Below are positions 9,973 to 46,234 of a stretch of DNA of 57,528 nucleotides, one piece after another. The position numbers and the translations under genes were made by a program. Under the pieces are notes generated by a model. The model saw only the letters and a program-made list of their open reading frames with translations, did not search any database and was not told the DNA's origin. How positions within the stretch are numbered: the stretch's first letter is position 1; every line of letters starts with the position of its first letter. This DNA comes from a virus (lineage: Duplodnaviria > Caudoviricetes), in IMG/VR virus record IMGVR_UViG_3300027734_000004, positions 1 to 57,528 of that record; one strand, 5' to 3'.

Positions 9973-12284
9973 TGGCAACGCAACCGGGCCTCGCTCCAAT
10001 GAATATTCGTCAGCCTGCTCCAGATGAGCCGGGTGCGATTGACACGTCACCGATCCAAATCGACTTTGCAGATGAGAGTGGAGACACTCCTGAGACAGAT
10101 GAGAACGGGAATATCCTTTCAATTGAGCATGATGACGGTTCAATAACTGTTTCGCTTGATGGAAACCCGCTTGAATCGGCTGAAAATGGCGATGACGGCG
10201 ACTGGTTTGCCAATCTGGTCGATAAAATTGACGAAGCTGAACTTAATTCTATTTCTGGTGACCTGTTTCGCGGAATTGATGACGATTTGCTATCGCGTAA
10301 GGACTGGGTTGAGACACGGGCGCAGGGAATTAAGCTTCTTGGCCTGAAAATAGAGATTCCGGGCCTCACAGGGGCCGTTGACGGCGCACCGGTTGAAGGC
10401 ATGTCGCGTGTACGCCACCCATTGCTGCTTGAAGCTGTATTGCGCTTCCAAGCCAACTCCCGGTCGGAACTTTTGCCGACAGATGGACCTGTTAAGATCC
10501 GCAATGACGATAACAATGCGTCATTGCAGGAAGACCAGATTGCAAACGCGCTTGAGCGTGACCTTAATCACTATTTGACATCGACGGCGACGGAATATTA
10601 CCCCGACACCGACCGTATGTTGCTGATGCTGGGCTTTGGCGGCACGTCATTTAAAAAAGTTTATTATTGCCCGCTGCGTAACCGCCCTGTTTCAGAGACT
10701 GTGGACGCAGATGACCTGATCGTAAGCAATGACGCAACGGATTTGTCCAATGCGCGCCGCATTACGCACCGGATCATGATGCGCCCGTCAATTGTGAAGC
10801 GTATGCAGATCCTTGGCGTCTATCGTGACGTTGATTTAGGCACACCTAGCATGCGCCGCCTTGATCCATTGCAGCGCGAAGAGCGTGAGCAGCAGGGGAT
10901 TTCGTCTGATGCCACCAATCCGTTGGATCGTGATCGCGAAATTTACGAATGCTATTGCGAACTGGACATCAAGGGCTTTGAGCATAAGCACAAAGGCAAA
11001 ATATCTGGGCTTGAGATCCCATACCGTGTGACCGTTGACGTTTCCTCAAAGGAAATCTTGTCAATTGTCCGTAATTTTGATGAAGACACAGCAGACCTGC
11101 CAATAGCCAAGAGCAGCTTTGTTAAATACACGTTCGTACCGGGCCTTGGCTTTTACGACATTGGCCTGCTGCACATTCTGGGCAACACCACCAACGCCAT
11201 CACGGCTGCATGGCGCGAATTGCTGGATGCAGGTATGTATTCCAACTTCCCCGGCTTCCTAATGGCTGACACGGGCGCACGGCAGAACACCAACATCTTC
11301 CGGGTTCCTCCCGGCGGCGGCGCGTTAATTAAGACTGGCGGCATGCCAATATCACAAGCGGTTATGCCCCTGCCCTACCAGCCGCCATCGCAGGCGCTGA
11401 TGCAGCTTGTTAGCGACATGGCGCAGACCGGTGCTCGTATTGGCGGCACGTCTGAAATGCAGGTCGGTGAAGGCCGTGCTGATGCCCCTGTGGGCACCAC
11501 CATTGCCATGATTGAACAGGCCACCAAGGTCATGAACGCCGTTCACAAACGCCTCCACGCTGCACAAGCGGAAGAATTCCGTTTGCTGTGCGAGTGCTTC
11601 CGCGAAAACCCAGAAAGCTTTTGGCAGCGCAATGCCAAGCCAACTATGTCTTGGGATCAGGCAACATTTATTCAGGCGCTTGATGACTACGACCTTACGC
11701 CTCAGGCAGACCCCAACACAGCGTCACATGGTCAGCGCATCATGAAGATTACTGCCCTAAAGCAGCTTCAGCAGGCAAACCCATCGATGTACGATCCTAT
11801 CGCCATCGACGTTGCTGCATTGCAAGCTATTGGCTGGTCGAACCCGTCGCAGTTTATGGCACCGGCAAATGCGCAAGCATCACCACCGCCAGAACTGTTG
11901 CAGGCTCAGGCAAAAATGAAGAACGACGAAATGACCGCAAATGCGCGGATGATGGAAGCGCAGGCACGGGCAGCAGAAACACAAGCCAAGATCCAGTCTG
12001 GTGCATTTGCGCCAAAGCAAGAAGGTCCAGAAATGGGTCAGGCAGCGCTCAACGCCGCACAGGCAGATCTTATCAATGCCGAAACCAAGCGCAGCGAAAT
12101 TGGCGTCCGCCATCAAGAGCGTATGGTTGAAGATCAGAACCGCGATTTGGATCGTCAGAGCCGTGAGCGTGTTGCCATGTTGCAGCTTGCCCGTGACCTT
12201 GTAATGCATCCGGAGCAGGCTGAAGCTGTCGAGCCATTGGTTGGCCCGTCAGAGCGTAAATTTAATGAGGGCGAAGGCGAATGA
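9969..12284 (+). CDS. Portal protein (podovirus type with long C-terminal helical extension)
   Basis: Position after terL; HPLLLEAVLRFQA, GTSFKKVYY, GFYDIGL, VGTTIAMIEQ..KVMNAVHKRLH motifs. Confidence 0.88.
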   Translation: MMATQPGLAPMNIRQPAPDEPGAIDTSPIQIDFADESGDTPETDENGNILSIEHDDGSITVSLDGNPLESAENGDDGDWFANLVDKIDEAELNSISGDLFRGIDDDLLSRKDWVETRAQGIKLLGLKIEIPGLTGAVDGAPVEGMSRVRHPLLLEAVLRFQANSRSELLPTDGPVKIRNDDNNASLQEDQIANALERDLNHYLTSTATEYYPDTDRMLLMLGFGGTSFKKVYYCPLRNRPVSETVDADDLIVSNDATDLSNARRITHRIMMRPSIVKRMQILGVYRDVDLGTPSMRRLDPLQREEREQQGISSDATNPLDRDREIYECYCELDIKGFEHKHKGKISGLEIPYRVTVDVSSKEILSIVRNFDEDTADLPIAKSSFVKYTFVPGLGFYDIGLLHILGNTTNAITAAWRELLDAGMYSNFPGFLMADTGARQNTNIFRVPPGGGALIKTGGMPISQAVMPLPYQPPSQALMQLVSDMAQTGARIGGTSEMQVGEGRADAPVGTTIAMIEQATKVMNAVHKRLHAAQAEEFRLLCECFRENPESFWQRNAKPTMSWDQATFIQALDDYDLTPQADPNTASHGQRIMKITALKQLQQANPSMYDPIAIDVAALQAIGWSNPSQFMAPANAQASPPPELLQAQAKMKNDEMTANARMMEAQARAAETQAKIQSGAFAPKQEGPEMGQAALNAAQADLINAETKRSEIGVRHQERMVEDQNRDLDRQSRERVAMLQLARDLVMHPEQAEAVEPLVGPSERKFNEGEGE

Positions 12285-15200
12285 ACGACCCAAAGGCTAT
12301 CCGCAAAGCAATCATGACCGCACGAAACATTGCGGCTATGATCGATCCAAACTTTGCGCGTGTGCCTTTGCCCCAAATTGGGGAGCCTGATTACGAAGAG
12401 CAAAGGCCACCCTTGCAGTTTTCTATGGGTGGCAGGCTTCCTGCTCAACGGTCTGACAATCCATTTGAGCAATTCCAGTCACAAGATCCTTTTTCTTTCA
12501 ATTTGCCTGACCACCAATATGCTGCTGGCGGTGAGGTCTACGGCGACAATAGTAAGATCAAGGTTGTTGGAAATTACAAAGGTGAGCATCGTCTTGTTCC
12601 CATCAGCCCTAAAAATACTAATTACCGGCATGTTATGGAATATGTGCCAATTGACTGGCTTATGGAGCGGCGCGGCAATGAATATCGCCACTCGCCTGAG
12701 CGTATGGAGCAGCTTCGTAACGAGATTCAGGAAGAAGGACTGCGTGAACCGGTGCTTATCAGCACGGGTAAGAATTCCCGAACTTCAATTGTTGGTGAAG
12801 GAAATCACCGTGTTCTTGCCGCTAAACAGCTTGGCTACACCCATATCCCGGTAAGGGCTATGGTGGGTAGTTCAGCCGGTAGCGATGTGTTTCCGGAAGG
12901 CGCGCACGACGAAGATATTATCCCAAAGCCAAACGAGTATTTCCCATCTGACGCCAAGCCATCTCGCGTCATGCGCAGCTTGGGCTACGAAGGTCAGCCA
13001 GAACTTCCTGAGGATTGGTGGGAAAAGGGGTACGCCACTGGCGGTGGGGTTGATGACCACGTTGTCAATAATCCAATGTCAGTCTTTCCAAAGCCCCAGC
13101 GCATGTTTGACGAAGATATGCCGGGTGGCGCGTATCTATCCATGCCCGACAAGGAAGACGTTACGGGGCACCGCGCCGCGCAGGCGTCCATTGGCATTGG
13201 TGAAGGCGGCAAGCCATACTTCCACGCCTCACGCGATGCGGCTGACGAAACAGGTTCGCCCGGTAAAGGCAGCGCGCTGGTCAAGACCAATCTGTTTAAG
13301 CAACGTGCTGGATGGCGCTGGTTGGATGCGCCTGAGGGCCATGAAGGCACCAGTACCATTGTCTCTGTCGAGCATCGCGGCAAGCACCATTATGTGATGG
13401 ATGCGCATTTCCCCAAGGGCGTTGATCTTAGCCGCTACCCTGACGCCCCTTCTGAGCCTCGCCTGCGCCCCACTACCCGTGGTAACGTCGAACTGGGCCC
13501 ACAGGTAGGGTCGATCCTTGTTCGTGGTCGTGAGCATCCCGTACACAGCCACGCCATCGTGCGCGAGTATGGCGGGCGTGTGGGCTATGCTGACGGCGGC
13601 ATGCTTGATGATGAGCAACCCACAGACTATGCAGCACCAGACAATATGGGCTTGTACAGCCATGGTGCAGCAACGGCAGCAGCTTCCCCGCAGGCAAAGG
13701 CATCGCCCCAAGAGTTCCGCAGCATGCTGACCAATCGCGGCGTCAAGCCCAGCGAGTTTCAGGCATCTGGTTACGACCAAGCTTTTGCTGATCAGCCGCA
13801 GGTTACCCGCGAACAGGTTGCAGAGCATTTCCACCAAAACCGGACGCCGATTAAGGAAAGAGGTTTCTACACCGAAGACGCTAATACTGAAAGCATGGCT
13901 GCGCTTGAAAATGAATATTGGGATAAGAAGCGCGATTTGCAGGATCGCAAGTTGGCGTATCGCAATGCAAACCCAGATGCAGACATTTCCAACTTTGGCC
14001 GTGAGGAAGAAGAAGCCTTACGCCGTGAATTAACCGAAAAGCGCAGAGCCCTAAGGGAATCTGAATTACATATCGAAAGCGCAGGAGATCCGCACCACGA
14101 GGAGCATATGCTTCCGGGCGGTGAAAATTACCGCGAAATTGCTTTAAAGCATGGCGGCGATGATGTCATGTTTAAGGGGGTTAGTGGCCACCTTGGCGGT
14201 GAGCAGAATATTCTAGCGCATGTATTGATGAAGGACCGCACCGATTCTGAGGGTAAGCGCATCTTACATCTTGATGAATTGCAGAGCGACTGGGCCCAGC
14301 AGGGTCGTGAAAAAGGCTTTGATCAAGATCCAGAAACAAGCAAAAAGATTATTTCTGAATTTGACGATTACCACAAAAACCTTCGCGATCGCGCTTTAGA
14401 TCAGGTCACAAAACGCGCCAGAGATCTTGGCATGCCTGATGAAGATCTTTCAGACATTCGCAATGCAATTGCAAGTGAGCATGCCCACGAAAACTTGGCT
14501 TACTTTGCCGGTGGCGAAGAAGAGGCTGACCGCTACATAAAAATGCGCCAAAATGCAGAAAAAGCCCGTAACACAATGAGCCCAGCCCCTTACGTCACAA
14601 AGACGGATGACTGGGTTGATCTAGGGCTAAAGCGCGCCATGATGGAAGCTGCAAAAGGCGGGCACGATAAGCTTGCATGGTCGCCGGGTGACGTTGTTGC
14701 TGACCGCTACAACCTCAGCAAGCACATCAAAGACATCCACCACGAAAAGAACGATGATGGAACGTACAACGTCATAGCCCGCAGTCATCGGGGTGCAAAA
14801 GTTTATGACCAAGACGGGCTTGCTGAAAAAGACGTGGTAGATGCCTTAGGCAAGGAAGTTGCAGGTAAGATCTTTTCTGGCGAAGGAACTGGTCGCGAAG
14901 AGATTCAAGCTAAAATTGATGCTGCAAACAAAGACTTTGAAGATTTTAAAAGCAGGGCAGTTGAGGCTGACCTGCAAAGGCGCATTGGTGAATCGGACTC
15001 AAATGCAGATTTTATCAAAAAAAATCAGCAGGAATACAAAAATGTAATTAGCAATAATTTTGAAGAAAGTCCTTACACTTTTTCTCAAAACCTTGGCCTT
15101 GTCGATGAGTATAATGCGCTAACAAACAAATTAAGGCGCGCACATGATGACATGAAATTAGGCCCTTACTCCCCGTACCGTGATTGGCGCACGTTAAGCG

Positions 15201-17677
15201 GCGTCGATCTTACAATTGGCGGCGAGGGTATGAAGAAATTTTACAATGAGATGCTGCCTAAGCGCTTGATGAAGCTTGCCAAGCAGCATGATCCTGACGC
15301 CAAATTTTCTGTTTCAACCGTCAAGCATCCGTCAGAATATTCTGATGATTACGACAGAAGAGATTACATTTCCGACACCACTACCGACCTACCCACTTTG
15401 GAGATGACACCCAAGATGCGCGAAAGCATTTTGAAGAAGGGTTTTGCTGCCTATGCTGACGGCGGTGAGGTTGATGGTTACGACAAGGGTGGAAGCGTCG
15501 ATAGCTACCAAGATCCCGCCACGCAGCACATATCCGACTGGAACTGGCGTTCCGTTGGAGATGTTCAGGACAGCCTTGGCGGGATGAAGGAAATTCCTTC
15601 GCACGTCGAAAAGTTTGGCGACTTTATGGACACCATTGCTCAGCGCGCTGGTGGCAGCGGCCTTACGCCACGCGACCTGATCAAGGCATACACAATTACC
15701 CGGTCAAGCATTCAGCGTCGGGCCGCAGACGTTGATAAGCTGCGCGCATCTGGCCTTGATCTACCGGAGGAAATGACTGGTAAAATCCGCCCTGAAGGTG
15801 CTTTTGGCGAATGGTTGCACACACCAGCAGGCCAAGCATACCTTGACGCAGCGGAAAAGGGCAAGGTACACCAGACTGCAATCCAAAACGCAATTCAAGT
15901 CATGGCACCATTTGGCCGTCACCAGACAGACATTCCTGATGCCTTGACATGGGCTGCGCTTAACCTTCCGGGCAAGGAAAAGCAGGTATCTGAACTTGTT
16001 CACGCCGGTCACTTGATGGCAAGCACCCCAGAAGAATGGCGGGCGTTTACACAGCACATTCGCGGTGTCGGCCCCAGCAAGTCTGGTTTCCTTGCATCGC
16101 TTATGGGGCGCGGTGACCAGCCAACATTGGATGCGCGCCAGATTATCCTGCACACCGGGCGTCCAACCAAGGAAGCCAGCAAGTATATCGCCAAAAAGGG
16201 TGGCGCAGGAGGCGTTGAAGCCGTTGACCGCCTTGCAGCGCGCCAGAGCGCCATGGATCTGTCCCTTCCTGACCGTTTGAAGCCGTATTACCAGCACCTT
16301 GCTCACCATGCGGTTTGGGATAAGGCTGGCGATGAAGAAACAACGCACGAAGATGTTGTGCGCGCTATGCACCACGCTGCAAAGGGTGGTGCGCAAAATG
16401 CATACGACCAGCCCAGCATGCTTGAGCATCCGGTCACCAAGATATTTCAGGCAATCGGCATGGCTGGGTTGAATGACCCAAGCGTTGATCCTGCGAAATT
16501 CAAAGAATACCTAAAGCGGGCACAATACGCACTTGCGCGTAAGATTACGACTAAGGGTTCCGACGTTCTTGCATCCTATCCGGGCGCTGCAAACGTCAAG
16601 ATGAGTAAGTTTGGCAAGCCCCTTAGCGAAATGGAATCTACCACTGTTCAAAAGGGCTTTATGCTTCCGCGCAAAGAGGCCGACATTGAAGAAATGCAGC
16701 GGCGTGGTTCGCGAATTTTCCCATTCTTGGGTGATTTGTCACCCGCTGACCAAATCTTGCTCAAGACAGGTCAAACAAGCCTTGTTGACCCCAGCGAACA
16801 GCAGGGTGGCGCTGGTTTTATGCGCTCAGAGTTTGCGCAGGGCCGCGATCCCGCTGCTTATGGCAATCGTATTGGTGCAGCCAAAACACTTGCCAAAAAG
16901 ATTGCAGCACAGACGCCAGAGGGTACGCCTGCAATCGGTACGCACGTTGCCATGGGGCTTGGCAGCGTTGATTCATCGCACCATGCTTATGAGCCTATTT
17001 TGCGCATGATACCTAATTCACCAATTGCGCAAAAGCATATTGATGATTTTGATGACATGATGCGCGAAGCGCTACCGGCAACAAAAAAGTACCCCATGGC
17101 GTGGCCGGGTATCATGAACACCAAAGAGGCTGAGCAATTTTTTGCGGGCAGACCCGGTACACACGCATCGTTCTTTGCTAAAAAGATTGACAGTTCAAGA
17201 TGGCAGAAAGCTGGGTTCCCAGACATTGGAGAAGTCCGTTTTTCTGCATCAACACCAGAACTTCTTGGCGCACCGCGCTTATCAACTGGCAGCGCTTTTT
17301 CGCAGGTTGAGCCATCTGGTCGTATTGTAACCAATCCAGACCTTAAACATAAAACTTATCCTGCCCTTATCCCGTCTGAGGGTGAAGGGTATATGGGTGG
17401 ATCAAGCATCCCAATTCCAGCCAAACTAATGTTTAGTGATTTTTTTAAAACCATGAAAACAAAGGATAAAAGCGGGAAGGCCATTAATTACGACTCACCT
17501 ACTGGCCAAACTTTGTTTCAGCAGTCACTAATGACTAAAGTCCCATTCCAAGATGCTACGCAGGAATGGTTGGATAACATCATGGAAGACCGCCGCCAAA
17601 AGCAAGAGCAAGGCTTTAAAAAGGGCGGTAAAGTTCGTAGTGCGTTGATGATTGCCAAGGGTATGAAAAAAAGGTAA
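12281..17677 (+). CDS. 1798-aa modular (polyvalent-type) putative internal virion protein: ParB/Srx-like, unknown, ELQSDW module, HhH-GPD glycosylase-like and unknown modules separated by xxxGG motifs
   Basis: ParB-like EGLREPVLI...GEGNHRVLAAKQLGYTHIPV; HhH IRGVGPSKSGF...PTLDARQI; ATGA-coupled to portal. Confidence 0.75.
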   Translation: MNDPKAIRKAIMTARNIAAMIDPNFARVPLPQIGEPDYEEQRPPLQFSMGGRLPAQRSDNPFEQFQSQDPFSFNLPDHQYAAGGEVYGDNSKIKVVGNYKGEHRLVPISPKNTNYRHVMEYVPIDWLMERRGNEYRHSPERMEQLRNEIQEEGLREPVLISTGKNSRTSIVGEGNHRVLAAKQLGYTHIPVRAMVGSSAGSDVFPEGAHDEDIIPKPNEYFPSDAKPSRVMRSLGYEGQPELPEDWWEKGYATGGGVDDHVVNNPMSVFPKPQRMFDEDMPGGAYLSMPDKEDVTGHRAAQASIGIGEGGKPYFHASRDAADETGSPGKGSALVKTNLFKQRAGWRWLDAPEGHEGTSTIVSVEHRGKHHYVMDAHFPKGVDLSRYPDAPSEPRLRPTTRGNVELGPQVGSILVRGREHPVHSHAIVREYGGRVGYADGGMLDDEQPTDYAAPDNMGLYSHGAATAAASPQAKASPQEFRSMLTNRGVKPSEFQASGYDQAFADQPQVTREQVAEHFHQNRTPIKERGFYTEDANTESMAALENEYWDKKRDLQDRKLAYRNANPDADISNFGREEEEALRRELTEKRRALRESELHIESAGDPHHEEHMLPGGENYREIALKHGGDDVMFKGVSGHLGGEQNILAHVLMKDRTDSEGKRILHLDELQSDWAQQGREKGFDQDPETSKKIISEFDDYHKNLRDRALDQVTKRARDLGMPDEDLSDIRNAIASEHAHENLAYFAGGEEEADRYIKMRQNAEKARNTMSPAPYVTKTDDWVDLGLKRAMMEAAKGGHDKLAWSPGDVVADRYNLSKHIKDIHHEKNDDGTYNVIARSHRGAKVYDQDGLAEKDVVDALGKEVAGKIFSGEGTGREEIQAKIDAANKDFEDFKSRAVEADLQRRIGESDSNADFIKKNQQEYKNVISNNFEESPYTFSQNLGLVDEYNALTNKLRRAHDDMKLGPYSPYRDWRTLSGVDLTIGGEGMKKFYNEMLPKRLMKLAKQHDPDAKFSVSTVKHPSEYSDDYDRRDYISDTTTDLPTLEMTPKMRESILKKGFAAYADGGEVDGYDKGGSVDSYQDPATQHISDWNWRSVGDVQDSLGGMKEIPSHVEKFGDFMDTIAQRAGGSGLTPRDLIKAYTITRSSIQRRAADVDKLRASGLDLPEEMTGKIRPEGAFGEWLHTPAGQAYLDAAEKGKVHQTAIQNAIQVMAPFGRHQTDIPDALTWAALNLPGKEKQVSELVHAGHLMASTPEEWRAFTQHIRGVGPSKSGFLASLMGRGDQPTLDARQIILHTGRPTKEASKYIAKKGGAGGVEAVDRLAARQSAMDLSLPDRLKPYYQHLAHHAVWDKAGDEETTHEDVVRAMHHAAKGGAQNAYDQPSMLEHPVTKIFQAIGMAGLNDPSVDPAKFKEYLKRAQYALARKITTKGSDVLASYPGAANVKMSKFGKPLSEMESTTVQKGFMLPRKEADIEEMQRRGSRIFPFLGDLSPADQILLKTGQTSLVDPSEQQGGAGFMRSEFAQGRDPAAYGNRIGAAKTLAKKIAAQTPEGTPAIGTHVAMGLGSVDSSHHAYEPILRMIPNSPIAQKHIDDFDDMMREALPATKKYPMAWPGIMNTKEAEQFFAGRPGTHASFFAKKIDSSRWQKAGFPDIGEVRFSASTPELLGAPRLSTGSAFSQVEPSGRIVTNPDLKHKTYPALIPSEGEGYMGGSSIPIPAKLMFSDFFKTMKTKDKSGKAINYDSPTGQTLFQQSLMTKVPFQDATQEWLDNIMEDRRQKQEQGFKKGGKVRSALMIAKGMKKR

Positions 17678-19650: not shown

Positions 19651-20043
19651 ATGCCACATATGAATATGACTCATGAAGAAGACCCAAAGGAACTGATTCT
19701 TCAAGCATTGGGCGATATTGAAAAGTTTAAAGTGTTCCACAATGAAGTGGTTGTCGCTGTGTATTTGCGTCCGGAAAAGACCAAAAGCGGCATTTACTTG
19801 CCGGATCAGCACCGCGACGAAGACCGCCACCAGAGCAAGGTCGGACTTGTTGTTAAGATGGGTTCTGAAGCTTTTGACGATCCCAACGGTAACTGGTTCC
19901 GGGGTATGGATGTAAAGCTACATGATTGGGTTGTTTACCGCCCGTCAGACGGCTGGACAATTACCGTCAACAACGTGCTTTGCCGTGCGTTAAAAGATAC
20001 AAACATTCGGGGCAGCGTCCCCCATCCCGATATGATCTGGTAA
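19651..20043 (+). CDS. groES: GroES/Cpn10-like co-chaperonin
   Basis: Mobile loop EKTKSGIYLPD, VGLVVKMG, VKLHDWVVY, ALKDTNI. Confidence 0.85.
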   Translation: MPHMNMTHEEDPKELILQALGDIEKFKVFHNEVVVAVYLRPEKTKSGIYLPDQHRDEDRHQSKVGLVVKMGSEAFDDPNGNWFRGMDVKLHDWVVYRPSDGWTITVNNVLCRALKDTNIRGSVPHPDMIW

Positions 20044-21761: not shown

Positions 21762-21788
21762 GATGGCTTCCTAAAAAGGAGACCCGTC

Positions 21789-36539: not shown

Positions 36540-37115
36540 ATGCCATTAAAGCACGGTAAATCGCAAAAAGTCATTAGTGGCAATATTGCTGAGATGATTA
36601 AGTCTGGGCACCCTCGCGATCAGAGCATTGCGGCAGCGCTTTCAACTGCGCGCACAACCCGCGCCACAGGCGGTCAAGTCAACACAAAGGTTCACAGCGG
36701 GCCTATTCACAGCGCCGTAGCAGGCCGCACAGACCACCTTCCAATGCATGTGGCATCCGGATCTTATGTCATCCCCGCTGACATCATCAGCGCAATGGGT
36801 GAGGGCAATACCATGGCTGGCTTTAAGCATATGCGCACCATCTTTGGCGGCATCCCCTACGGCAATGTGCAAGAGCCCTATGGCGTCGAAGGCGGACCTT
36901 ATGGTGAGCCACTGCCCGGTAAAGCTGAGGGTGGCGCTGCGACTGTTCCTATTGTAGCGGCTGGCGGGGAATATGTCGTAACGCCAGAGCAGGTAATTGA
37001 GGCTGGCGGCGGCGATCTTGACACAGGTCACAGGGTGTTGGATGAATTTGTTAAGCGTATGCGCGCTGAAACTGTTAATACATTAAAGAACCTACCCGGA
37101 CCTAAGAAAGATTAA
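36540..37115 (+). CDS. Conserved internal-virion-associated protein with a duplicated (G)xYV[IV] motif
   Basis: GRTDHLPMHVASGSYVIPAD and TVPIVAAGGEYVVTPE, each following an xxxGG motif. Confidence 0.7.
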   Translation: MPLKHGKSQKVISGNIAEMIKSGHPRDQSIAAALSTARTTRATGGQVNTKVHSGPIHSAVAGRTDHLPMHVASGSYVIPADIISAMGEGNTMAGFKHMRTIFGGIPYGNVQEPYGVEGGPYGEPLPGKAEGGAATVPIVAAGGEYVVTPEQVIEAGGGDLDTGHRVLDEFVKRMRAETVNTLKNLPGPKKD

Positions 37116-37624: not shown

Positions 37625-40600
37625 ATGGGCGGTAAAACCTCTAAGTCAACGCAGCAGATTACCATCCCACCAGAGGTGTTGGCTAGGTATAGGGCAATTA
37701 ATGCGCGTGCCGATACGGTAACTAACAGGCCATATCAATATTACGGTGGAGAGTTTGTTGCTCCGCTAAATGCAACGCAACAATCAGGTATTGCCAACAC
37801 CAATGCTGCTGCAAACATGGCGCAGCCATATTTTGGTGCTGCAACAAATCAGCTTATGAACGCTCAGGGCGCAGCGACACCTTATTATCAGACTGCCACC
37901 AACCAACTAAACCAAGGTGTAAATACCGGTCAGCAGCTTGCGGGCCAGTCGTATAATACACTAAATAACGCTCAGAACGTCGGAAACCAGTTTGCTGGGC
38001 AATCTTCAGATACAATTAATGCAGCGCAAAGTCAGGGCGCTGGAATACAGCAGAATGCGCTTAACAATTTGGGTGCTGCCTATTCATCAGCCCAGCCATA
38101 TAACCAAGCGGCTGGTGGCCTGTACCAACAGGGATTGGGGCAGGGCAGCAATATAACAGGACAAGCCTTATCTGGAACGCAGCAGGCTCTTATTGGCGCA
38201 CAGCCATATCAGGGGATGGCAACTGATTACATGAATAGCGGCGCTCAAGCGGTTAACCCTTATGATCTGGGCGCTGATCAGATTAATAAATACATGTCGC
38301 CATATCTTAACACCGTTTTGCAGGGTACCGCTGGAATTCTAAATCAGCAGAACCAGCAGCAGCAAGCTGGACAGATGGGCAATGCCATTCGCTCTGGGGC
38401 TTTTGGCGGTGATCGTAGCGGGATTGCTGCGGCGAACCTTAACCAGCAGCAAAACTTGGCTAATGCCCAAATCTATTCCGGCATTCTTAACCAAGGCTAT
38501 GGTCAGGCGCTTGGCACCGCCCAGCAGCAACAGCAACTTGGCCTTAGCGCTGCCCAAGCAAACCGTGCCGCTCAACAGCAGGCGTCAACGCAGGCACTTG
38601 CCATTGGCCAGCAGGGTTTTGGACAAGGGCTTTCCGCTGCACAGCAGCAGGGCGCTCTTGGGCAGCAACTTTTTAACATGAACTCCACTACTGGCCAAAA
38701 CACCGCCGCCCTTGGGCAGCAGGTTTACGGCCAAGGCACAAACACTGCTCAACAGCAATCCAATGTGGGCAATACACTTTTTAATCAAGGCGCTACCACA
38801 GCAGCGCAGCAAGCTGCTTTAGGTCAGCAGCAGTTTGCCCAAGGCGCTACCACAGCAGCGCAGCAAGCTGCTCTTGGCCAGCAGCAGTTTGCCCAAGGCA
38901 ACACAGCGGCAGGAACGTCAGCGGCATTGGGCCAAGGGCTTTACGGCATGGGAGCCAACACATCTGAGCAGCTTGCTGCCCTTGGTACTGGTGCTCAAAA
39001 CACAGCCCTTACAGGCGCTGCGGCGCAGATGGCAGCAGGCCAGACAGAGCAGGCTACGCAGCAGGCTTTGGACACTGCTAAGTACAATGAATTCCTTCAG
39101 GCTCAATCGCTGCCATACCAGCAGCTTAAACTGGCAGGCGACATTGCCCTTGGCACTGGTACGGCTTCTGGATCTACAACCACAACATCACAGCCCGGTG
39201 GCTTCTTCTCCGACGAACGTCTGAAGGAAAACATTAAGGCTGTTGGTAAGACTTTCGATGGTCAGACCATCCATAGCTATAACTATAAGGGTGACCCACG
39301 CACACAGATTGGTCTGATTGCGCAAGAGGTTCAGAAGCATCACCCAGAGGCTGTTGGCCTTGCTGGTGGCTACAAGACCGTTAATTACGACAAGGCAACT
39401 GAAGATGCCGCTGACCGGGGTCACATGGCCTCTGGTGGCCTTGCAAGCGCTGGTGGCAGTGTAATGCCATATAACGCAGGCCAAGGGTTTGCTGGCGGTG
39501 GCGTGGCTGGATTTGACCCAGCTATAATGCAGCAGATCCTTGCGGCACAGCAAGCCATGTACGCCCCACTTTCTGAGGGTGGCATGTACGCTGGCGGTCC
39601 GAATGCTGGCGGTGGCCTTGTTCCGCAGACTGAACTTACTGCGCATCAATTGATGGTGCCTGCTGAATTGGCACGTCAGGCTACTGGCGCTGAGCAGGCT
39701 AAGACGATGGTAGATCTTGGAAACAGCGTCAATAAGTTTGGCGAAGGCATAGGCGCTTGGGGTGGCGATAAGAAGCCTGCCGATAAGGGCTTTGAAATTT
39801 CAAAAGGCACATCAAAAGACATAAGCGCTTTATCTGAAGCTGAAAAAGCTCAAAAAGACCAAGATGAATATTTGTTCAAAGCCCTTGGCGGCGGTATACC
39901 ATATAGCGGTCAGGGTTTAGATATTCCTGATTCTGGCCTTGCTGCGGGCTCAGGTAGCCCAATGACGGCTGGCGCTCTTCCGGGCCAGCAAAGTGGCCTT
40001 GATAAGCTTAATAAGGTCGCAAATATTGCCGACACAGGAATGAAATTAGGCAAATTTGGTAAAAAGATTGGGCTCTTTTCGACCGGCGGTACGCCTTATG
40101 GTGGTCACGGTCTGGACATTCCTGAGGAAGACAGCTTAGATAAAACTTACCAGCTTCCAACTGCTGGGGAGATGCCCGGTAAGCCCGAAAGCGGGGTCGA
40201 TAAGATTGGCAAAATTGCCAAAATTGCGGGTACTGTGGCATCGTTATTCTCCGACGAACGCATGAAGGAAAACATCAAACCCGTTGGCAAGCTGTTTGAC
40301 GGTCAGATTGTCCATAGCTTCAATTACAAGGGCGATCCTCGCACCCAGATTGGTTTGATTGCCCAAGAGGTCGAAGACCATAAGCCACATGCTGTTGGCT
40401 TGGCTGGCAAGTACAAAACTGTAGACTACGACAAGGCAACGTCAGCGGCTGCGCATCGTGGCCATTTTGCCATGGGTGGTGAGCCTGAGGGCGGTGGTCT
40501 TATGGGCGCTGAAATGGCAGGTCCTGATCAAAATGAACAGGGTTTCGATTTTAACCTAGATCCTGAGGATCTTATCGCTGGCAGCGATAGCCAATTTGAG

Positions 40601-42904
40601 TCGCTATTGCGTAGCAAGCCTGAGGCTGCGCCGCAGCAGGCTAATGGACTCGCCGCATCTGGCGAAGAATTCCGCAAAGAAATGGAAGCCCGCAAGAATG
40701 CTCCGCATGGCATGGGTCTTGCAGCGGCTACAAAGGCTCCGCCACGCATAATTCCCAATGTTAATCGCGGTTCAGGCCCGCGCTCTGTCCGTAACAATAA
40801 TCCCGGCAACATTGAAGACGGCAGCTTAGCCAAAAGCATGCCGGGGTACGCTGGCAGTGATGGACGCTTTGCTATTTTTAATGCGCCGCAAGCCGGTCGT
40901 GCAGCGCAGATGGCCCTCATCCGCAGCTATATCAATCGCGGTTATGATACGCCGTGGGAGATTGCCCACCGCTGGGCACCGCCCAAAGAAAAGGGCAATA
41001 ACCCTGTTGCATACGCAAATTCCATTGCCAAAATGGCTGGGGTTGGCGTCCACGACCGTGTACCCATGAGCGCCATTCCGTTGGTAGCTAATGCTCAGAC
41101 GATGGTTGAAGGCGGACAGCGGGCTTTGTCGCACTTTACGCAAAGAGGAAATGCAGATCATTTTGCCGCTGGTGGCCTTGCGGGGCGTGATGGTTATCAA
41201 ACTGCGGGCACTGTTGTGCCTTCAGCTTCGCAGCAAGAACAAATTGATTTTGAAGAAAAGAAGCGCATTGCAGAAGAGGAAAAAGCTGCTGCGGAAGCTC
41301 CCGCTAAAGGCGTTGCAGCAGCGGGGCCAAGCGCCACTACTACTGTTACCGTTCCGCCAGCATCTACCAACCCTGACGCCACTGGTGTTGCGCCACCAGA
41401 AGATATTGTGGTAAACGCGCAGACAGCCAAGGCAGACCCTCGCGGCGAGCCGCAACCTACCATGCGTGAAACTATTTATGGTCGCGGGAAGCAACAGCCC
41501 ATCAGCCTTGAAGGAGGTTCAATCGCGCCATTTAATTACGACTACATGTCGGAACCATTTTTCAAAGGCATTAAGCGCGGATCTGCTGGCTCAATCATCC
41601 CATTGTTGACCGGCATTGCTGCAATGGGCACCGCGCCTACACGCAGCCTTGGCGTTGCGCTTGCAACTGGCCTTGGTGCTGGTGCGCAATCGTATCAAAA
41701 CTTATCCAATGAGCGCAACAAGCAGCTTCCTATACGCCAAGCCGCCGCCGCTAAGCAGGCTGAGGTTGCTAAGATGCTGGCCGACCGATTCTTCCGCCTT
41801 TCGGATGATGGTAAGAATTTCCTTTACACACCTCCCGGAGGCGAAACCATTCTACTCACGCCCGGTGAAAGGATGGCAATGTTGCAGGAAATGACAACGG
41901 GAAATATGCAGTTTTTCCCACGCACTCCTAAAAATGCTCCATTATTTGCCCAAGATAATGCTGCGCCAAAAACACTCAAATTTAAGTCTACCGTTGCCCC
42001 CGGCAACGATAGTGTCGAAGCTATTATAGCTGGGGCTAACGCCAACCCAACCGTTGCTGAAGCTTTCAATGCCCGCGCTCAAGCAGAGGCTGAAATGGAG
42101 AAGCAAAAGCGCTTGGCTGGTAGCCCATTTGCTGCACCAGAAGATGTTGTTTTGGCTGGGCAAAGGTTGGAAAATGCTACAAGAACTTTCACAGCCAACG
42201 ATAAAATTTACAATGATGCATTGAGCGCAATAGCTGATTCCAAGCTGGCATCATTTGGCACCAGTGTTAATAATATCGGAACTGCAAACCTTGAAACATA
42301 CAGCAGGGCGCAAGATCGTCTATTGGAACTTCAACCGCTTATCCCTGTGGTTAAGGAATACCAAAAAATTATTGCAAGTGGAGGTCTTACGGGTGGTACA
42401 ACAACAACATTCTGGAACAGACTTGCCAGCGCCGCTTTGGCTCTTGGTGCTTCCCCAGAAGTTGTTGGCAATGGCCAGACTGCCGCGCAGAAACAAGCTG
42501 CTCTTGCAGCCCTACTGCCCGGAAATATGTCTGCTGCCCTTAGTGTTGAAAATACTCCGGCGGCTATTCAAGCGGTTGTCGGGGCTCTTGATAGCACCAT
42601 TAGCACTGCTCAGCAGCAATCCGACAGGGCATCGCAGTCAATGCGCCCAACAGCTACTCCAAAGATCAACCGAGCCATTACGCCGGAAGCGGCTCCGGCA
42701 GCGGCTGCTCCGGCAGCGGCACCGGCAGCATCCGCACCCAGTGCATCTGGCATTAGGAAGCACCCCAATAGCACACCTCAAAACCCAATGGTCATTGCCC
42801 CGTCATATGAGGCGGCAGTAAGTGATCGCAGCATTCCAAATGGCACTATGGTTTATTATCGGGACGCCAATGGAAACATGGCAAAAAGACCATTGAAACG
42901 GTAA
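37625..42904 (+). CDS. 1759-aa internal virion/ejection protein: Q/A/G-rich N-terminus, two peptidase S74 domains, RNNNPGNI lysozyme-like domain
   Basis: SDERLKENI...GLIAQEV...YKTVNY at aa 529; SDERMKENI...GLIAQEV...YKTVDY at aa 876; RNNNPGNI...RWAP...AY. Confidence 0.8.
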   Translation: MGGKTSKSTQQITIPPEVLARYRAINARADTVTNRPYQYYGGEFVAPLNATQQSGIANTNAAANMAQPYFGAATNQLMNAQGAATPYYQTATNQLNQGVNTGQQLAGQSYNTLNNAQNVGNQFAGQSSDTINAAQSQGAGIQQNALNNLGAAYSSAQPYNQAAGGLYQQGLGQGSNITGQALSGTQQALIGAQPYQGMATDYMNSGAQAVNPYDLGADQINKYMSPYLNTVLQGTAGILNQQNQQQQAGQMGNAIRSGAFGGDRSGIAAANLNQQQNLANAQIYSGILNQGYGQALGTAQQQQQLGLSAAQANRAAQQQASTQALAIGQQGFGQGLSAAQQQGALGQQLFNMNSTTGQNTAALGQQVYGQGTNTAQQQSNVGNTLFNQGATTAAQQAALGQQQFAQGATTAAQQAALGQQQFAQGNTAAGTSAALGQGLYGMGANTSEQLAALGTGAQNTALTGAAAQMAAGQTEQATQQALDTAKYNEFLQAQSLPYQQLKLAGDIALGTGTASGSTTTTSQPGGFFSDERLKENIKAVGKTFDGQTIHSYNYKGDPRTQIGLIAQEVQKHHPEAVGLAGGYKTVNYDKATEDAADRGHMASGGLASAGGSVMPYNAGQGFAGGGVAGFDPAIMQQILAAQQAMYAPLSEGGMYAGGPNAGGGLVPQTELTAHQLMVPAELARQATGAEQAKTMVDLGNSVNKFGEGIGAWGGDKKPADKGFEISKGTSKDISALSEAEKAQKDQDEYLFKALGGGIPYSGQGLDIPDSGLAAGSGSPMTAGALPGQQSGLDKLNKVANIADTGMKLGKFGKKIGLFSTGGTPYGGHGLDIPEEDSLDKTYQLPTAGEMPGKPESGVDKIGKIAKIAGTVASLFSDERMKENIKPVGKLFDGQIVHSFNYKGDPRTQIGLIAQEVEDHKPHAVGLAGKYKTVDYDKATSAAAHRGHFAMGGEPEGGGLMGAEMAGPDQNEQGFDFNLDPEDLIAGSDSQFESLLRSKPEAAPQQANGLAASGEEFRKEMEARKNAPHGMGLAAATKAPPRIIPNVNRGSGPRSVRNNNPGNIEDGSLAKSMPGYAGSDGRFAIFNAPQAGRAAQMALIRSYINRGYDTPWEIAHRWAPPKEKGNNPVAYANSIAKMAGVGVHDRVPMSAIPLVANAQTMVEGGQRALSHFTQRGNADHFAAGGLAGRDGYQTAGTVVPSASQQEQIDFEEKKRIAEEEKAAAEAPAKGVAAAGPSATTTVTVPPASTNPDATGVAPPEDIVVNAQTAKADPRGEPQPTMRETIYGRGKQQPISLEGGSIAPFNYDYMSEPFFKGIKRGSAGSIIPLLTGIAAMGTAPTRSLGVALATGLGAGAQSYQNLSNERNKQLPIRQAAAAKQAEVAKMLADRFFRLSDDGKNFLYTPPGGETILLTPGERMAMLQEMTTGNMQFFPRTPKNAPLFAQDNAAPKTLKFKSTVAPGNDSVEAIIAGANANPTVAEAFNARAQAEAEMEKQKRLAGSPFAAPEDVVLAGQRLENATRTFTANDKIYNDALSAIADSKLASFGTSVNNIGTANLETYSRAQDRLLELQPLIPVVKEYQKIIASGGLTGGTTTTFWNRLASAALALGASPEVVGNGQTAAQKQAALAALLPGNMSAALSVENTPAAIQAVVGALDSTISTAQQQSDRASQSMRPTATPKINRAITPEAAPAAAAPAAAPAASAPSASGIRKHPNSTPQNPMVIAPSYEAAVSDRSIPNGTMVYYRDANGNMAKRPLKR

Positions 42905-42916: not shown

Positions 42917-45900
42917 ATGGCTAAAAATGACGCACCAACAATCGGAACTGCGGAACAGCAAGATGCTCAGGGCCTGCTTGGCGCTGTGGACATGGTTAAG
43001 AATTTTATACAAGCCAAACCCTCTGAGCGTGTGCCGTTTAAAGAGGTCAAGGTAGATGAAAATGGGGAGCCTGTCCTTGGCCCTGACGGGCAACCTATAG
43101 AAATTGAAGTACGCAATTCCCTTATCGATCCCAAATATGGATACCGCACCCAAGAGTCCCCACCCCTTCATGGCTTTAATGAGGGCGCGTTTAATGTCAT
43201 TCACAACTGGCATCCGCTTGAAGTTGCGCGTGATACCGTAAAAGGACTTAAAGATCTACCGCAAGCGATTTCATTTCTTGACTCTTTAAAGCGCGGTTCT
43301 TTTGCTGCTGGCATGACACCTGAGCAATATCGGCAAACATTTTTTGCTGAAGTTTTTCCTAAAATGTATGGCAATCCCATGCTTCTTTCCGTTTCCGGGG
43401 CAATGCATAGGACCATGGACCTAAAGCAAGCCACAGCGCAGCGCGAAAAAGACCTTCAAAACTACAAAATGGCCTTGTCCCTTTACGGGGTATATAATCC
43501 AGAAACCAAAGAATTGTCGTTTGATTGGAATGGATTTGCGCGGGATCTTACTCAGCATCCTGCTGAAGTTGGATCACTTTTTGTTGGTGGTGGCGCTGGG
43601 TTCGCGAAGGCGGCTGCGGGTGTGGCTAAGCTATCTGGCCTTGAAAATGGCTTGTCACTTGTCCAAAATCTTTCGCGCCTTAAAAATATAACTTCCGCTC
43701 CATTTTCAGGCACCTCCTCAGCCATGCAGGCGGTTCGTAACTTTGGTACCGTTGCAGGTGATGTAGTTAAGACTGCCGCCGCCAGCAAGGCTGGGCAAGT
43801 GGTGCGAGGCGGTCTTGATTTAACCGGCAAAGCTTTAAAATTAACCGGTAAGGGCCTTGACCCCGTAACACCTATAGTTGGTAACGTAGCCGGTAAGGCA
43901 ATAGTTGGTGGTGTTAATCTTGCGCGCAAAATAGCACCATTTAAGGCCAGCATATACAGCCCTGAATTTACCCGTGAGTGGGGCGCTTTTTCCAAAGCTA
44001 AAGAGCAGGAGCTTATTGATTATGGTGCCACTGCTGAGGAAATTAAATCGATACCAACGCAAAGAAACATTTGGGAACAGTTTCAATTGGAAACTGGCGA
44101 TAGGTTTACAAACCCATTTTCAAAGGAAGCTAATGCAGCATTTGACACGCTTGAAGCCCAAGGGCGCGGCTTTAAGCGCGAGAACTATGTTCCCCCGTAT
44201 ATTGGCGGCGTAATTGATCAGACGGTCAATCGTAAGGGTAAGGGCATTACGGATGCTATTTTGGCTGAGGGTGCCATCCGCACCGCAGCGCCAGAAGGCG
44301 GCGGATTAGCTGGTACTGCTGCCAGAAACAACAATGATGCCATGGGCGTAACCCGCTCAACGGCTACAAACGAGCCACCGGGTATTATTCAGCAAAATAA
44401 AGGTATAGGGCAAAGCGGTTTTCTTTCTAGCGGTCGTGAAACAGCGGCGCGGACTTCAACTGACACCCAATTGGGCAATTACCTTAGCGAAAACTTGGGC
44501 GGTCAGGGGGCGAACCCATTAACGCACCAAAATATCGCTGATGATTTCATTGCCGCTGATCTTGCAAAGCGTAATGCATATCAGCAGTCATATGATCAAG
44601 CTGTAGCATCTGAAGGTGGCGGTGTTTACACTGACCCCAATGCTTTTGTGACAAAGTTTCAGCAGGAATATGATGCTGCGCTGCGCCAACATGGCTTGAG
44701 CGCACAAGATGTAGCGCAAAACTCAAATCTATATCCAAATGCGTCAGTAGCTTTTGACAGTTCAGCAAAAAACATTGCTGGGTACGGCCACACTGTCGAG
44801 CCGCTCAAAGGTTCAGTGCCCGGTTTGCCGGGAGAGTATATTTATAATCCTGCGGATCGCAATTGGAGGCCAGATTTTGGCAGTCAATCTTTTCGCAGTA
44901 ATCCTGCAAATCGAAGTACTGCTGATTTTCTTAACCAAACCTACTCTGCGGAAATCGCGGCTGGTCAGTCGCCGCCCCGCAACATGCTCAATCTTCAAAG
45001 TTTGGAAGTTGAGCGTAAGCGTTTAAACGCAGTTGCACAAAAAGCTTATAAAAGCGGCAATATGGGTGATTACAACGCTACCATGGCTCAAATTGATGCA
45101 TTGGATAATACTGCAATTGCCATGGCTCCCACACACAATGGCCCCAACGTAAGGCAGGCCGTTGGTCACCTTACAGATGCGCGTCAGCAATTCCGCAACT
45201 GGCGTCAGAATGGGATTGATGCTCCGCCAACGCCTGCAAATGATGTCGTGCGGACAGCAGCACAAAGAACATTTGATCTTACGCAGCGCGATCCTGCAAC
45301 TGGGAAATTTGTTTTTTCAAGTGAGCCTGATGCGGCCACCTATGTTGGTGATGTTTTTAAGGGTAAGTTTGTAGGCGAAAATGGCGTTACACCATCTTAT
45401 TCAGATCCTAATGCCCTTATAGATGTCCTTACAGACCCTAATCGTGGTCTTATGACTAACCCAAGCTTGGTCCCAGATTATCTTCGTACAGGATACGGTA
45501 GACCCGGTGCTTCACCGCAAGATCTTGCGGCGTACCATGGCACTTACAGTGGTCGCAATGTTCTTAACCCTGACGAAACAAACTTTTTTGAGCGCAGCAT
45601 GGCAGCGCGAGCCGCCACTGATCCCAATGCAATTCCGCAAAGGGAGCCTTTCCAGCTTGTTGCCGATTTGGAAGGTGTCACAAATCCAGTTCGTCGAGTT
45701 TATGAAAGGGCAAAACCAGTCATTAGGGGTATTTCCGGGTTCCTTCTTGGCAACACTATCGACCCCTCGCTTGGCTACCTTACTGGAAGCGGGGCATTTG
45801 GCAGTGGGGCGGTTAGCCAAGGGGTAAAGGATCTTGGCCTATTGCGTAATGAACTTGGTGGTGCCCCAAATTACTCAGTAAGCATACCTCAGGCGGCTAT

Positions 45901-46234
45901 CAACGCCCCACTTCGCACATCCGGCCTTCTATCTGGCTACAATGATACAAAGCAAACTGCCCAGAATGATTCAGCGGCAAATGCGATTTTAGAAGACGAA
46001 AACCTATCTATAGCTGAAAAGCTATTGGGTCCACCACCCCAACCCCAAGCCCGTGGCGGTCGTGCTGCGTACAGGGCTGGCGGCAAGGTTGGCGGGATCG
46101 AACCGCTTATTCAGGCATTGATGAATAAGGCAAAAATGGCTAAGAAGGTTTCGAACAAGGCAACGGAGCCCCTTCTTAATGAACGCGATGATGCTATAGC
46201 AAGTGCCTTAGCTGTCGCGCAAAAAGCTATTTAA
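42917..46234 (+). CDS. Large internal virion/ejection protein
   Basis: 1105 aa, Ala/Gly-rich, follows the first ejection gene; C-terminal QARGG and YRAGG motifs. Confidence 0.65.
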   Translation: MAKNDAPTIGTAEQQDAQGLLGAVDMVKNFIQAKPSERVPFKEVKVDENGEPVLGPDGQPIEIEVRNSLIDPKYGYRTQESPPLHGFNEGAFNVIHNWHPLEVARDTVKGLKDLPQAISFLDSLKRGSFAAGMTPEQYRQTFFAEVFPKMYGNPMLLSVSGAMHRTMDLKQATAQREKDLQNYKMALSLYGVYNPETKELSFDWNGFARDLTQHPAEVGSLFVGGGAGFAKAAAGVAKLSGLENGLSLVQNLSRLKNITSAPFSGTSSAMQAVRNFGTVAGDVVKTAAASKAGQVVRGGLDLTGKALKLTGKGLDPVTPIVGNVAGKAIVGGVNLARKIAPFKASIYSPEFTREWGAFSKAKEQELIDYGATAEEIKSIPTQRNIWEQFQLETGDRFTNPFSKEANAAFDTLEAQGRGFKRENYVPPYIGGVIDQTVNRKGKGITDAILAEGAIRTAAPEGGGLAGTAARNNNDAMGVTRSTATNEPPGIIQQNKGIGQSGFLSSGRETAARTSTDTQLGNYLSENLGGQGANPLTHQNIADDFIAADLAKRNAYQQSYDQAVASEGGGVYTDPNAFVTKFQQEYDAALRQHGLSAQDVAQNSNLYPNASVAFDSSAKNIAGYGHTVEPLKGSVPGLPGEYIYNPADRNWRPDFGSQSFRSNPANRSTADFLNQTYSAEIAAGQSPPRNMLNLQSLEVERKRLNAVAQKAYKSGNMGDYNATMAQIDALDNTAIAMAPTHNGPNVRQAVGHLTDARQQFRNWRQNGIDAPPTPANDVVRTAAQRTFDLTQRDPATGKFVFSSEPDAATYVGDVFKGKFVGENGVTPSYSDPNALIDVLTDPNRGLMTNPSLVPDYLRTGYGRPGASPQDLAAYHGTYSGRNVLNPDETNFFERSMAARAATDPNAIPQREPFQLVADLEGVTNPVRRVYERAKPVIRGISGFLLGNTIDPSLGYLTGSGAFGSGAVSQGVKDLGLLRNELGGAPNYSVSIPQAAINAPLRTSGLLSGYNDTKQTAQNDSAANAILEDENLSIAEKLLGPPPQPQARGGRAAYRAGGKVGGIEPLIQALMNKAKMAKKVSNKATEPLLNERDDAIASALAVAQKAI

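Follow-up and report, generated by a model that had tools for sequence, protein, structure and literature searches.

Why should a short peptide built around two adjacent glycines recur in six predicted proteins of a single phage genome? The question is raised by IMGVR_UViG_3300027734_000004, a virus record that is complete at 57,528 bases and carries direct terminal repeats (called here the window, that is, the whole stretch of DNA analysed), from a podophage of the HTVC023P-like group. The initial annotation had described a loose motif, [YFMLKR]xxGGx[VLA], concentrated in proteins of 1798, 542, 94, 191, 1759 and 1105 amino acids (aa), and had proposed a maturation-protease site or a packaging signal. 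Our results support the motif as a real and conserved signal, found specifically in proteins that lie inside the virion or are injected. As to its role, the answer that we favour, tentatively, is a connector or processing site of virion-packed proteins that leave via the tail, which a host peptidase or an assembly-dependent event would cleave at the joints or just ahead of them. Cleavage in this phage, the exact position of the cut and the enzyme are predictions drawn from sequence and from analogy with other phages.

Distribution of the double-glycine motif

All the pentapeptides behind that description (32 types, 34 occurrences) were recovered in place in the six open reading frames (ORFs). 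Each protein was shuffled 300 times, both over its full length and inside 50-aa blocks. Together the six proteins hold 22 copies of the pattern, whereas the shuffles average 3.8-4.2 and 0/300 reach 22, so that the motif does exceed its shuffled background. The shorter form [YFMLKR]xxGG was found 44 times (17.3 expected) and the GG dipeptide 92 times (66 expected). By contrast, the remaining 46 ORFs (11,439 aa) carry the pattern 7 times against 4.9, a number reached by 61/300 shuffles, and GG 86 times against 98; the claim that capsid, terminase and tail proteins show no like enrichment is thus borne out. A 522-aa fibre protein (30260-31828) with 19.5% glycine in a collagen-like Gly-X-Y pattern contains a single GG where about 20 are expected and, being glycine-rich with a single GG, is a useful negative control for mere glycine-rich composition.

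Since both the six proteins and the pattern had been picked after the data were inspected, relatives were taken as an independent sample. The portal gene has relatives on at least 597 confirmed stretches in IMG/VR, of which the best 80 loci (L003-L082) were kept. Among their ORFs of at least 100 aa, [YF]xxGGx[VIL] occurs 112 times in the 78,497 aa encoded between the portal and GroES genes and twice in the 175,224 aa encoded elsewhere, which take in terminase, portal, GroES, scaffold and capsid proteins and the homologues of a 221-aa and a 207-aa protein. In a second sample of 80 loci, collected around a 698-aa virion protein, homologues of the 1105-aa protein carry 7 motifs in 10 ORFs, 20-55 aa from the C-terminus, and those of the 1759-aa protein 23 motifs in 39 ORFs; the other classes have 0-0.22 per 1000 aa. 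It should be noted that the counts in relatives include related sequences and are not independent events.

The relatives also define a sharper core, [YF]-[AK]-x-G-G-x-V, with conserved Y/F at -3, A/K at -2 and V at +2; the second position is A or K in 83% of 106 distinct contexts. A second flavour, the basic repeat [RK]-K-x-G-G-[RK]-A, is found in the 542-aa family, and a third form, H-[FM]-A-x-G-G, in the 1759-aa protein; [KR]-A-x-G-G is a further related form. The single loose motif of the initial annotation was therefore a real signal but mixed at least two flavours. Limited open-access text searches found no description of the motif, of a role at junctions of polyvalent cargo, of its pairing with terminal helices or of its occurrence in the processing regions of T5, lambda and P22 discussed below; as kinds, targeting peptides on internal phage proteins and their maturation cuts are already known.

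Module junctions and terminal helices

The 1798-aa protein, encoded directly after the portal gene, appears from its sequence to be a beads-on-a-string cargo protein of the polyvalent type. Its sole recognised domain is a ParB_N-like stretch at aa 111-194, below the cut-off in Pfam (E 0.0012) and matched by ParB-like/methyltransferase PHROGs at E 8.5e-10 to 4e-8; seven modules are delimited by the way in which segments are shuffled. When the protein was aligned with relatives by BLASTP, 41 of the 82 internal alignment endpoints fell within 10 aa of a motif (6.2 expected), although the endpoints are not independent because the sequences are related. The proposed placement of the motif, at boundaries of domains and close to termini, is thus confirmed. 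Individual relatives are mosaics with breakpoints at the motifs: L012 joins residues 1-88 to 1067-1797, L008 joins 1-259 to 436-1065, and the matches of L003, L005, L024 and L076 begin or end at residue 80, 251, 436 or 1058/1067. In the alignment, exactly one [GH]YAxGGEV is found per junction in relatives, and tandem pairs with the 9-aa spacing seen at residues 1058 and 1067 recur in L005 and L007. In the uncultured record MW202675.1 the equivalent region is split into four ORFs, and the motifs sit between GNAT, M15, ART-PolyVal and InPase domains, all of which score above their cut-offs.

These features recall the polyvalent proteins (Iyer et al. 2017), which unite several unrelated conflict-type domains in a single polypeptide of phages that package by portal and terminase. 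The giant proteins encoded beside the portal gene carry domains of the PolyVal set (ParB-like here; ART-PolyVal and InPase in MW202675.1). Passages of PMC5512222 predict such proteins to be packaged and injected and propose their processing, with zincin MPTase domains as the enzymes; the words 'glycine' and 'linker' occur 0 times in its main text. Unlike that arrangement, the MPTase domain of the window lies in a separate ArdC gene, absent from 5/5 near-complete relatives.

Could the motif have no function of its own and be a by-product of glycine-rich linkers and of recombination at short shared sequences, inherited within families of modules? Breakpoints at the motifs are also what recombination at a shared 21-nt stretch would give, many of the counts come from related sequences, and GG itself is modestly over-represented. 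However, the codons of the nine strict copies in the window vary synonymously while their amino acids are kept; cargo ORFs that are encoded separately retain the motif at their ends, where a linker would be needless; the motif recurs in unrelated tape-measure proteins, including lambda gpH; and shuffling within 50-aa blocks still gives 22 against 4.2. We therefore regard this explanation as improbable.

The motif is also paired with short amphipathic helices at protein ends. In the AlphaFold2 model, aa 4-27 of the 1798-aa protein form a helix whose predicted local distance difference test score (pLDDT) is 73-79, and a similar N-terminal helix (RKAIMTAR type) lies within the first 35 aa in 26 of 61 distinct first post-portal ORFs of relatives. 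Downstream of the last motif, at a distance of 1-48 residues, a helix that typically reads VVDRALxLTR is present in 22/30 distinct C-terminal tails of relatives. The consensus is approximately R-x-A-L-M-x-A-K or V-V-D-R-A-L-x-L-T-R; the pattern, which was defined after inspecting the data, is found in 163/5000 and 49/1115 control windows (3-4%). At N-termini the helix precedes GG and at C-termini it follows GG, so that by this mirrored order the motif always stands between helix and cargo. The pairing was seen in the 1798-, 542-, 191- and 1105-aa proteins. An uncontrolled complex prediction for residues 1-130 of the 542-aa protein with the capsid protein and the scaffold scored 0.00 and has no bearing on binding either way.

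The capsid targeting sequence of T4 is a short terminal peptide on internal proteins that is cut by gp21 at L/I-x-E after assembly. The helices described here resemble it as conserved short terminal peptides on internal proteins, and their targeting function is putative; unlike T4, the window has neither a prohead protease gene nor sites of the L/I-x-E type.

Small proteins encoded 5' of the terminase and portal genes in relatives (L080 212-703, L043 6700-7443, L054 1152-1685, L055 272-982, L058 106-585 and L076 1268-1846) carry a helix of the form R-x-A-L-L-A-A-K about 10 aa from the C-terminus.

Cleavage, docking and the question of the enzyme

A 20-base degenerate DNA pattern for YADGGEV was matched on at least 119 viral stretches, and 80 loci with 82 matches were examined. 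Of these matches, 73 are read in phase by an open frame of 100 aa or more and 9 fall in shorter frames; a frame with two or more copies is present in 33/80 loci. A distant homologue of a window structural protein is held by 32 loci and by none of the other 48. Ten ORFs from those 48 loci were scanned against PHROGs: three are tape-measure proteins (L185, L193 and L227), one is a DNA ejection protein, two carry tail or endolysin segments, one belongs to a family of unknown function and three gave no match. The three tape-measure proteins carry a motif pair 55-115 aa from the C-terminus.

Two named phages have mapped cuts at such sites. T5 pb2, which yields pb2* and pb2C, is cut after R1127, and its last 35 residues anchor in pb3, according to passages of PMC10038345. 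The cut reads FVPR↓AEGGMMYPGVSYQMGEHGTEVVTP (R↓AEGGMM), fits [basic/aromatic]-A-x-G-G-hydrophobic and adjoins the sole GG of the last 700 residues. It lies upstream of a GE..E.VV.P element and of the C-terminal helix anchored in the hub protein pb3, and the 1798- and 1105-aa proteins end in the same order of motif, linker and helix; a similar sequence, KAEGG...GEYVVTP, is present in the 191-aa protein. Unlike the window proteins, T5 pb2 is a siphophage tape measure with one site rather than many. P22 gp7, like the proteins considered here an injected podophage protein, starts MLYAFTLGRKLRGEEPSYPE↓KGGKGG, and its record notes that 20 residues are removed by the host OpdA; the mature N-terminus is Lys-Gly-Gly-Lys-Gly according to passages of a 2021 paper (PMC8402733). 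The resulting KGGKG can be compared with RRAY-KKGGKV, found at aa 54 in the 542-aa protein and preceded there by an N-terminal helix, although gp7 has a single site and a short, largely dispensable leader and lacks both the aromatic residue at -3 and the Val at +2. From GG counts, the chance of a mapped cut right before GG was estimated post hoc at roughly 1% for T5 and 3-4% for P22. Two mapped cuts directly upstream of GG would thus be rare by chance.

In lambda gpH, FATGG is found at 733 and YATGGYV at 779, and HFATGG matches HFAMGG and HFAAGG of the 1759-aa protein. Passages of PMC12617516 give the cleavage site and catalyst of the conversion of gpH to gpH* as unknown, describe residues ~690-817 as unresolved and glycine-rich, with a C-terminal piece of ~14 kDa removed there, and show helix 818-849 binding gpI. 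Both lambda motifs lie in the unresolved stretch, upstream of the gpI-binding helix. The link between the lambda cut and the motif of the window is a prediction. No Pfam family spans the motif stretch in lambda gpH or T5, Tape_meas_lam_C ending at 701. The layout [aromatic/basic]-A-x-G-G followed by a terminal anchor helix, looked for 55-125 aa before the C-terminus, was found at the C-termini of the 1798- and 1105-aa proteins and likewise in the tape-measure proteins of lambda, T5, L185, L193 and L227.

We propose the following mechanism. The GG joints would link exchangeable modules of the giant post-portal cargo protein and would also separate a terminal amphipathic anchor helix from the body of the 1798-, 542-, 191- and 1105-aa proteins. 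The terminal helices would hold the proteins in the assembling particle. Cleavage would then strike the exposed joints one or two residues ahead of GG, the position mapped in T5 pb2 and P22 gp7, or the joints would at least act as release hinges, and anchors and modules would be freed for ejection. No recognisable phage protease would be involved; the cut would most likely come from a host peptidase (OpdA in P22) or from an assembly-dependent event. The cleavage or packaging signal of the initial annotation thus stays plausible in view of the T5 and P22 cuts, whereas the mode of cleavage that it borrowed from adenovirus and African swine fever virus (ASFV) is not supported.

A wider version of this proposal is more speculative, and we regard it as rather unlikely: tailed phages may share an 'exit code' of anchor helices and [aromatic/basic]-[A/K]-x-G-G joints in tape-measure proteins, podophage ejection proteins and injected polyvalent cargo, and a host peptidase or the assembling particle itself would cut these joints right ahead of GG. 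If it were true, the site of the gpH to gpH* cut would be predicted after F733 or Y779, and the release of giant cargo proteins as separate enzymes would be explained. The loading and release of large enzymes is known only for a few model phages. The motif offers a simple searchable mark of cargo proteins and module borders in a very abundant environmental phage group, and its position in the cut region of the lambda tape measure yields a concrete prediction that is open to bench work in lambda, T5 or P22; it may also serve the engineering of phage capsids for chosen protein cargo.

Several points weigh against cleavage at the joints, and the first of them concern the enzyme. Pfam and PHROG scans of 46 ORFs of 80 aa or more in this complete genome recognised no prohead protease, in line with the initial annotation, and no adenovirus/ASFV-type cysteine protease or GG-specific protease. 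The peptidase families found were S74 (inside the 1759-aa protein), the MPTase of ArdC and an M15_4 cell-wall peptidase. The candidate enzymes that had been named did not hold up. The 221-aa protein (mean AlphaFold2 pLDDT 69.9) gave no Foldseek match in the PDB at E <= 0.001; its family has no invariant Ser or Cys, and profile searches of the 294-aa scaffold-like and 221-aa families against PDB sequences returned nothing below E 0.1. ArdC is unlikely to be the processing peptidase: among the fetched loci it was present only in L007, L008 and L010, the closest relatives with enough flank, MPTase-PolyVal occurs in 0/5 near-complete relatives and a SprT-like protein in 1/5, and ArdC has no BLASTP likeness to the SprT-like protein of MW202675.1. 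The 191-aa protein is itself a motif-bearing, ejection-type protein, and the product of 24164-24484 is a DUF6321 protein. As for the host, an OpdA-like M3 oligopeptidase is not expected to cut the internal joints of the 1798-aa protein.

Other points concern the joints and the comparison with known phages. The AlphaFold2 model of aa 1-520 of the 1798-aa protein (10-row alignment) has a mean pLDDT of 38.5, is confident only for the helix at aa 4-27 and for aa 460-520, and is thus too poor to place the motifs in linkers. Val at +2 is strongly conserved on the would-be primed side, and the T5 and P22 cuts differ in register, at two and one residues before GG. Caulobacter phage RW gp66c ends exactly in YMDGGRV, where a cut would be pointless, which favours a binding role. 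In P22, deletion of the gp7 leader keeps about 60% of the burst, according to passages of PMC8402733, so that the leader is largely dispensable. The tape-measure proteins of HK97 and SPP1 have degenerate versions only, FAKGAGVF and YSGGMV. The resemblance of KAEGG...GGEYVVTP in the 191-aa protein to the T5 site R↓AEGG...GTEVVTP (BLASTP E 0.99, no hhalign match) and to HRGEFVFTKEA of lambda gpH (BLASTP E 0.058; hhalign E 0.024, probability 2%) is not significant; without significant homology, the likeness is one of motif and layout only. Finally, cleavage across the clade is a prediction from sequence.

Some of these points would be explained if the motif were never cut and worked instead as a docking or hinge element, which is possible but doubtful. 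A GG turn with aromatic and Val anchors, together with the helices, would tether cargo to the scaffold, the capsid wall, the portal or a tail plug, and flexible joints would also ease unfolding and threading through the channel; the cargo-loading peptides of encapsulins offer a comparison. Such an element fits the conservation of residues on both sides of GG (Y/F at -3, A/K at -2, V at +2), motif copies that close RW gp66c or, in L146, stand 7 aa before the C-terminus, tandem pairs with a 9-aa spacing, which would strengthen combined binding, the role of the C-terminal helices of the lambda and T5 tape measures as anchors on gpI and pb3, and a protease not found in the Pfam and PHROG scans. 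On the other side, the mirrored order is easier to reconcile with an anchor-cargo boundary than with a ligand of two fixed parts, both mapped cuts (T5 and P22) fall right at such sites, and the receptor is a putative one.

The initial annotation had instead looked to a dedicated new phage protease of the adenovirus/ASFV type, cutting after Gly-Gly and maturing head polyproteins. The adenovirus and ASFV (pS273R) proteases cut after GG within the consensus (M/I/L)-X-G-G↓X or G-G↓X, and in the window as in these viruses GG belongs to a short consensus carried by internal virion proteins, some of them basic and DNA-associated. An enrichment in internal proteins and at module boundaries is what such an enzyme would call for, and several conserved head-module genes have no known function. 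Yet register, flanking residues and virus realm all differ: the mapped phage cuts lie 1-2 residues before GG and not after it, and the conserved positions are unlike (M/I/L)XGG↓X. No such peptidase family was present in any scanned ORF, nor any related cysteine protease, and the 221-aa candidate lacks both an invariant Ser/Cys and a protease-like fold match. The interval from portal to capsid holds the cargo genes, GroES and the genes of the 294-, 221- and 207-aa proteins and nothing else, and scans of that gene set gave no T4-type prohead protease gene. The layout portal, GroES, scaffold, two further genes and capsid is common to HTVC023P and RW, and these two phages, in which motifs are few, have the same head-module gene set. 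We consider a dedicated protease of this kind very unlikely. The double-glycine leaders of the consensus LSxxELxxIxGG are cut by a C39 peptidase; the motif described here is internal and repeated, unlike a leader, and no C39 peptidase-ABC transporter family was found in the Pfam and PHROG scans.

A chaperonin link is equally remote. Here A-x-G-G with hydrophobic residues would imitate the GroES mobile loop, and the large proteins would engage GroEL. A GroES homologue is indeed encoded between the cargo and scaffold genes throughout the phage group, and the mobile loops read KTKGGVI and KTKGGII in HTVC023P and RW. Cleavage of a T5 tail protein needed a host function, to judge from the title of Zweig and Cummings 1973, which a passage of PMC3357383 cites as a chaperone requirement for tail assembly. 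However, this GroE dependence of T5 tails may be indirect, and the loop of the window's own GroES (KTKSGIYLP) has no GG. The residue after GG in the motif is usually charged (E or K), leaving one hydrophobic residue only, whereas the E. coli GroES mobile loop has three; binding of the motif to GroEL is putative.

Other motif-bearing proteins and the gene neighbourhood

The features of the window are collected in Table 1.

Table 1. Genes, motifs and helices of the window, with residue numbers of the encoded protein in brackets.
Feature	Position	Strand	Remark
ArdC (ArdC-N and MPTase-PolyVal zincin, HELVH)	3957-4814	-	early region, opposite strand
Large terminase	8130-9749		
Portal	9969-12284		
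1798-aa ORF	12281-17677	+	start overlaps portal stop
1798-aa: helix core RKAIMTAR (aa 8-15)	12302-12325	+	candidate anchor/targeting element, N-terminal, amphipathic
1798-aa: FSMGGRL (aa 47)	12419-12439	+	
1798-aa: YAAGGEV (aa 80)	12518-12538	+	module junction
1798-aa: YATGGGV (aa 251)	13031-13051	+	module junction
1798-aa: YADGGML (aa 436)	13586-13606	+	module junction; REYGGRV at aa 428 upstream
1798-aa: YADGGEV (aa 1058) and YDKGGSV (aa 1067)	15452-15499	+	module junction; 9 aa apart
1798-aa: FKKGGKV (aa 1779), then directly helix RSALMIAK (aa 1786-1793)	17615-17659	+	C-terminal two-part signal
542-aa basic Gly-rich ORF	17744-19372	+	low-complexity protein
542-aa: N-terminal helix ARRAMRAKI	17765-17791	+	
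542-aa: YKKGGKV	17903-17923	+	
542-aa: basic GG cluster	18062-18109	+	
GroES (Cpn10) homologue	19651-20043	+	E 4.1e-10, above cut-off
221-aa protein	20956-21621		
Major capsid protein	22391-23305		
94-aa basic protein	23866-24150	+	RASGG, RKRGGKT, RKPRKSGG
191-aa ejection-type protein	36540-37115	+	
191-aa: N-terminal helix IAAALSTAR	36627-36653	+	
191-aa: RATGGQV	36660-36680	+	
191-aa: KAEGG (aa 128-132)	36921-36935	+	
191-aa: GEYVVTPEQV element	36957-36995	+	
1759-aa internal/ejection protein	37625-42904	+	
1759-aa: Peptidase_S74 repeats starting FSDER[LM]KENIK	39206-39238 and 40247-40279	+	FSDERLK aa 528, FSDERMK aa 875
1759-aa: H[MF]AxGG after each S74 repeat	39422-39439, 40463-40480	+	
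1759-aa: KALGGGI	39878-39898	+	
1759-aa: third copy, HFAAGG	41159-41176	+	after tape-measure-like segment
1105-aa internal protein	42917-46234	+	
1105-aa: QARGGRA, YRAGGKV, then helix IQALMNKAK	46070-46090 (YRAGGKV), 46109-46135 (helix)	+	C-terminal signal

In the 542-aa family the motif lies within the first 100 aa in 32/32 distinct homologues, usually as [YF]K[KR]GGKV near residue 55, and four GG sites are conserved in the N-terminal 130 aa. The only match of this N-terminus in a tblastn search of named phages was MW202675.1. The RKPRKSGG listed for the 94-aa protein matches the 542-aa family consensus AGRKPRKSGG. A mini-module of the form GLYANI(H/N)AK(R/Q)ERI...SKERMRK.GS.GAPTAEAFKQSARTA (phrog_16028), at aa 351-394 of the 542-aa protein (18794-18925), is inserted in the 191-aa family of relatives (L088, L094, L103 and L084), where it is always bounded by xAxGG. 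The 191-aa family also has an invariant His-rich core, HSGPIHSxVAGRTDHLPMHVxSGSYVIPADIxSxMGEGNT (aa 51-97, 36690-36830), which has no family match and could be a metal or catalytic site.

The 1759-aa protein raises a separate case of probable processing. A stretch of about 78 aa is duplicated within it (aa 528-605 and 875-952; FSDER[LM]KENIK...RGH[MF]AxGG), behind a 520-aa Q/N/A-rich repeat region. Pfam assigns the two stretches to S74 with 70.2 bits against a cut-off of 22, and the Ser/Lys pair of S-D-x-x-x-K is present. In S74 proteins this pair serves the self-cleavage of an intramolecular chaperone. Because of this family membership the 1759-aa protein is probably a self-cleaving polyprotein, and the duplication suggests self-cleavage into three pieces. 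S74 self-cleavage is a known mechanism, independent of the GG motif.

Genes 3' of GroES encode, in order, the scaffold-like 294-aa protein (20054-20938), the 221-aa protein and the 207-aa protein (21753-22376). Past the capsid gene follow an adaptor, a tailspike, fibre genes, the 698-aa virion protein and the 191-aa protein, and last a GNAT-like protein, the 1759-aa protein and the 1105-aa protein. The nearest named atlas clusters of the 207-aa protein are phage cement proteins at 0.80-0.83, which is a lead only; the 221-aa protein has no nearest named cluster in the protein atlas. GroES, whose mobile loop in the window departs from the usual GG, is a fixed member of the head module, placed between the cargo and scaffold genes in the window, HTVC023P and RW (L163 6146-6586; L164 28004-28435).

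The capsid protein shares 41% identity with its counterpart in Pelagibacter phage HTVC023P and 91% with the one in MW202675.1. Among relatives (L012, L078, L049, L032, L021, L055, L058 and L077 compared with the window) it is 86-99% identical, whereas portal identity is only about 66-72% and scaffold identity 40-60%; capsid identity of this order points to an unusually strong constraint or to recent exchange of the capsid gene. A gene resembling beta-1,4-glycosyltransferases (32176-33231; PHROG E 6.7e-101) lies within the block of tail and virion genes.

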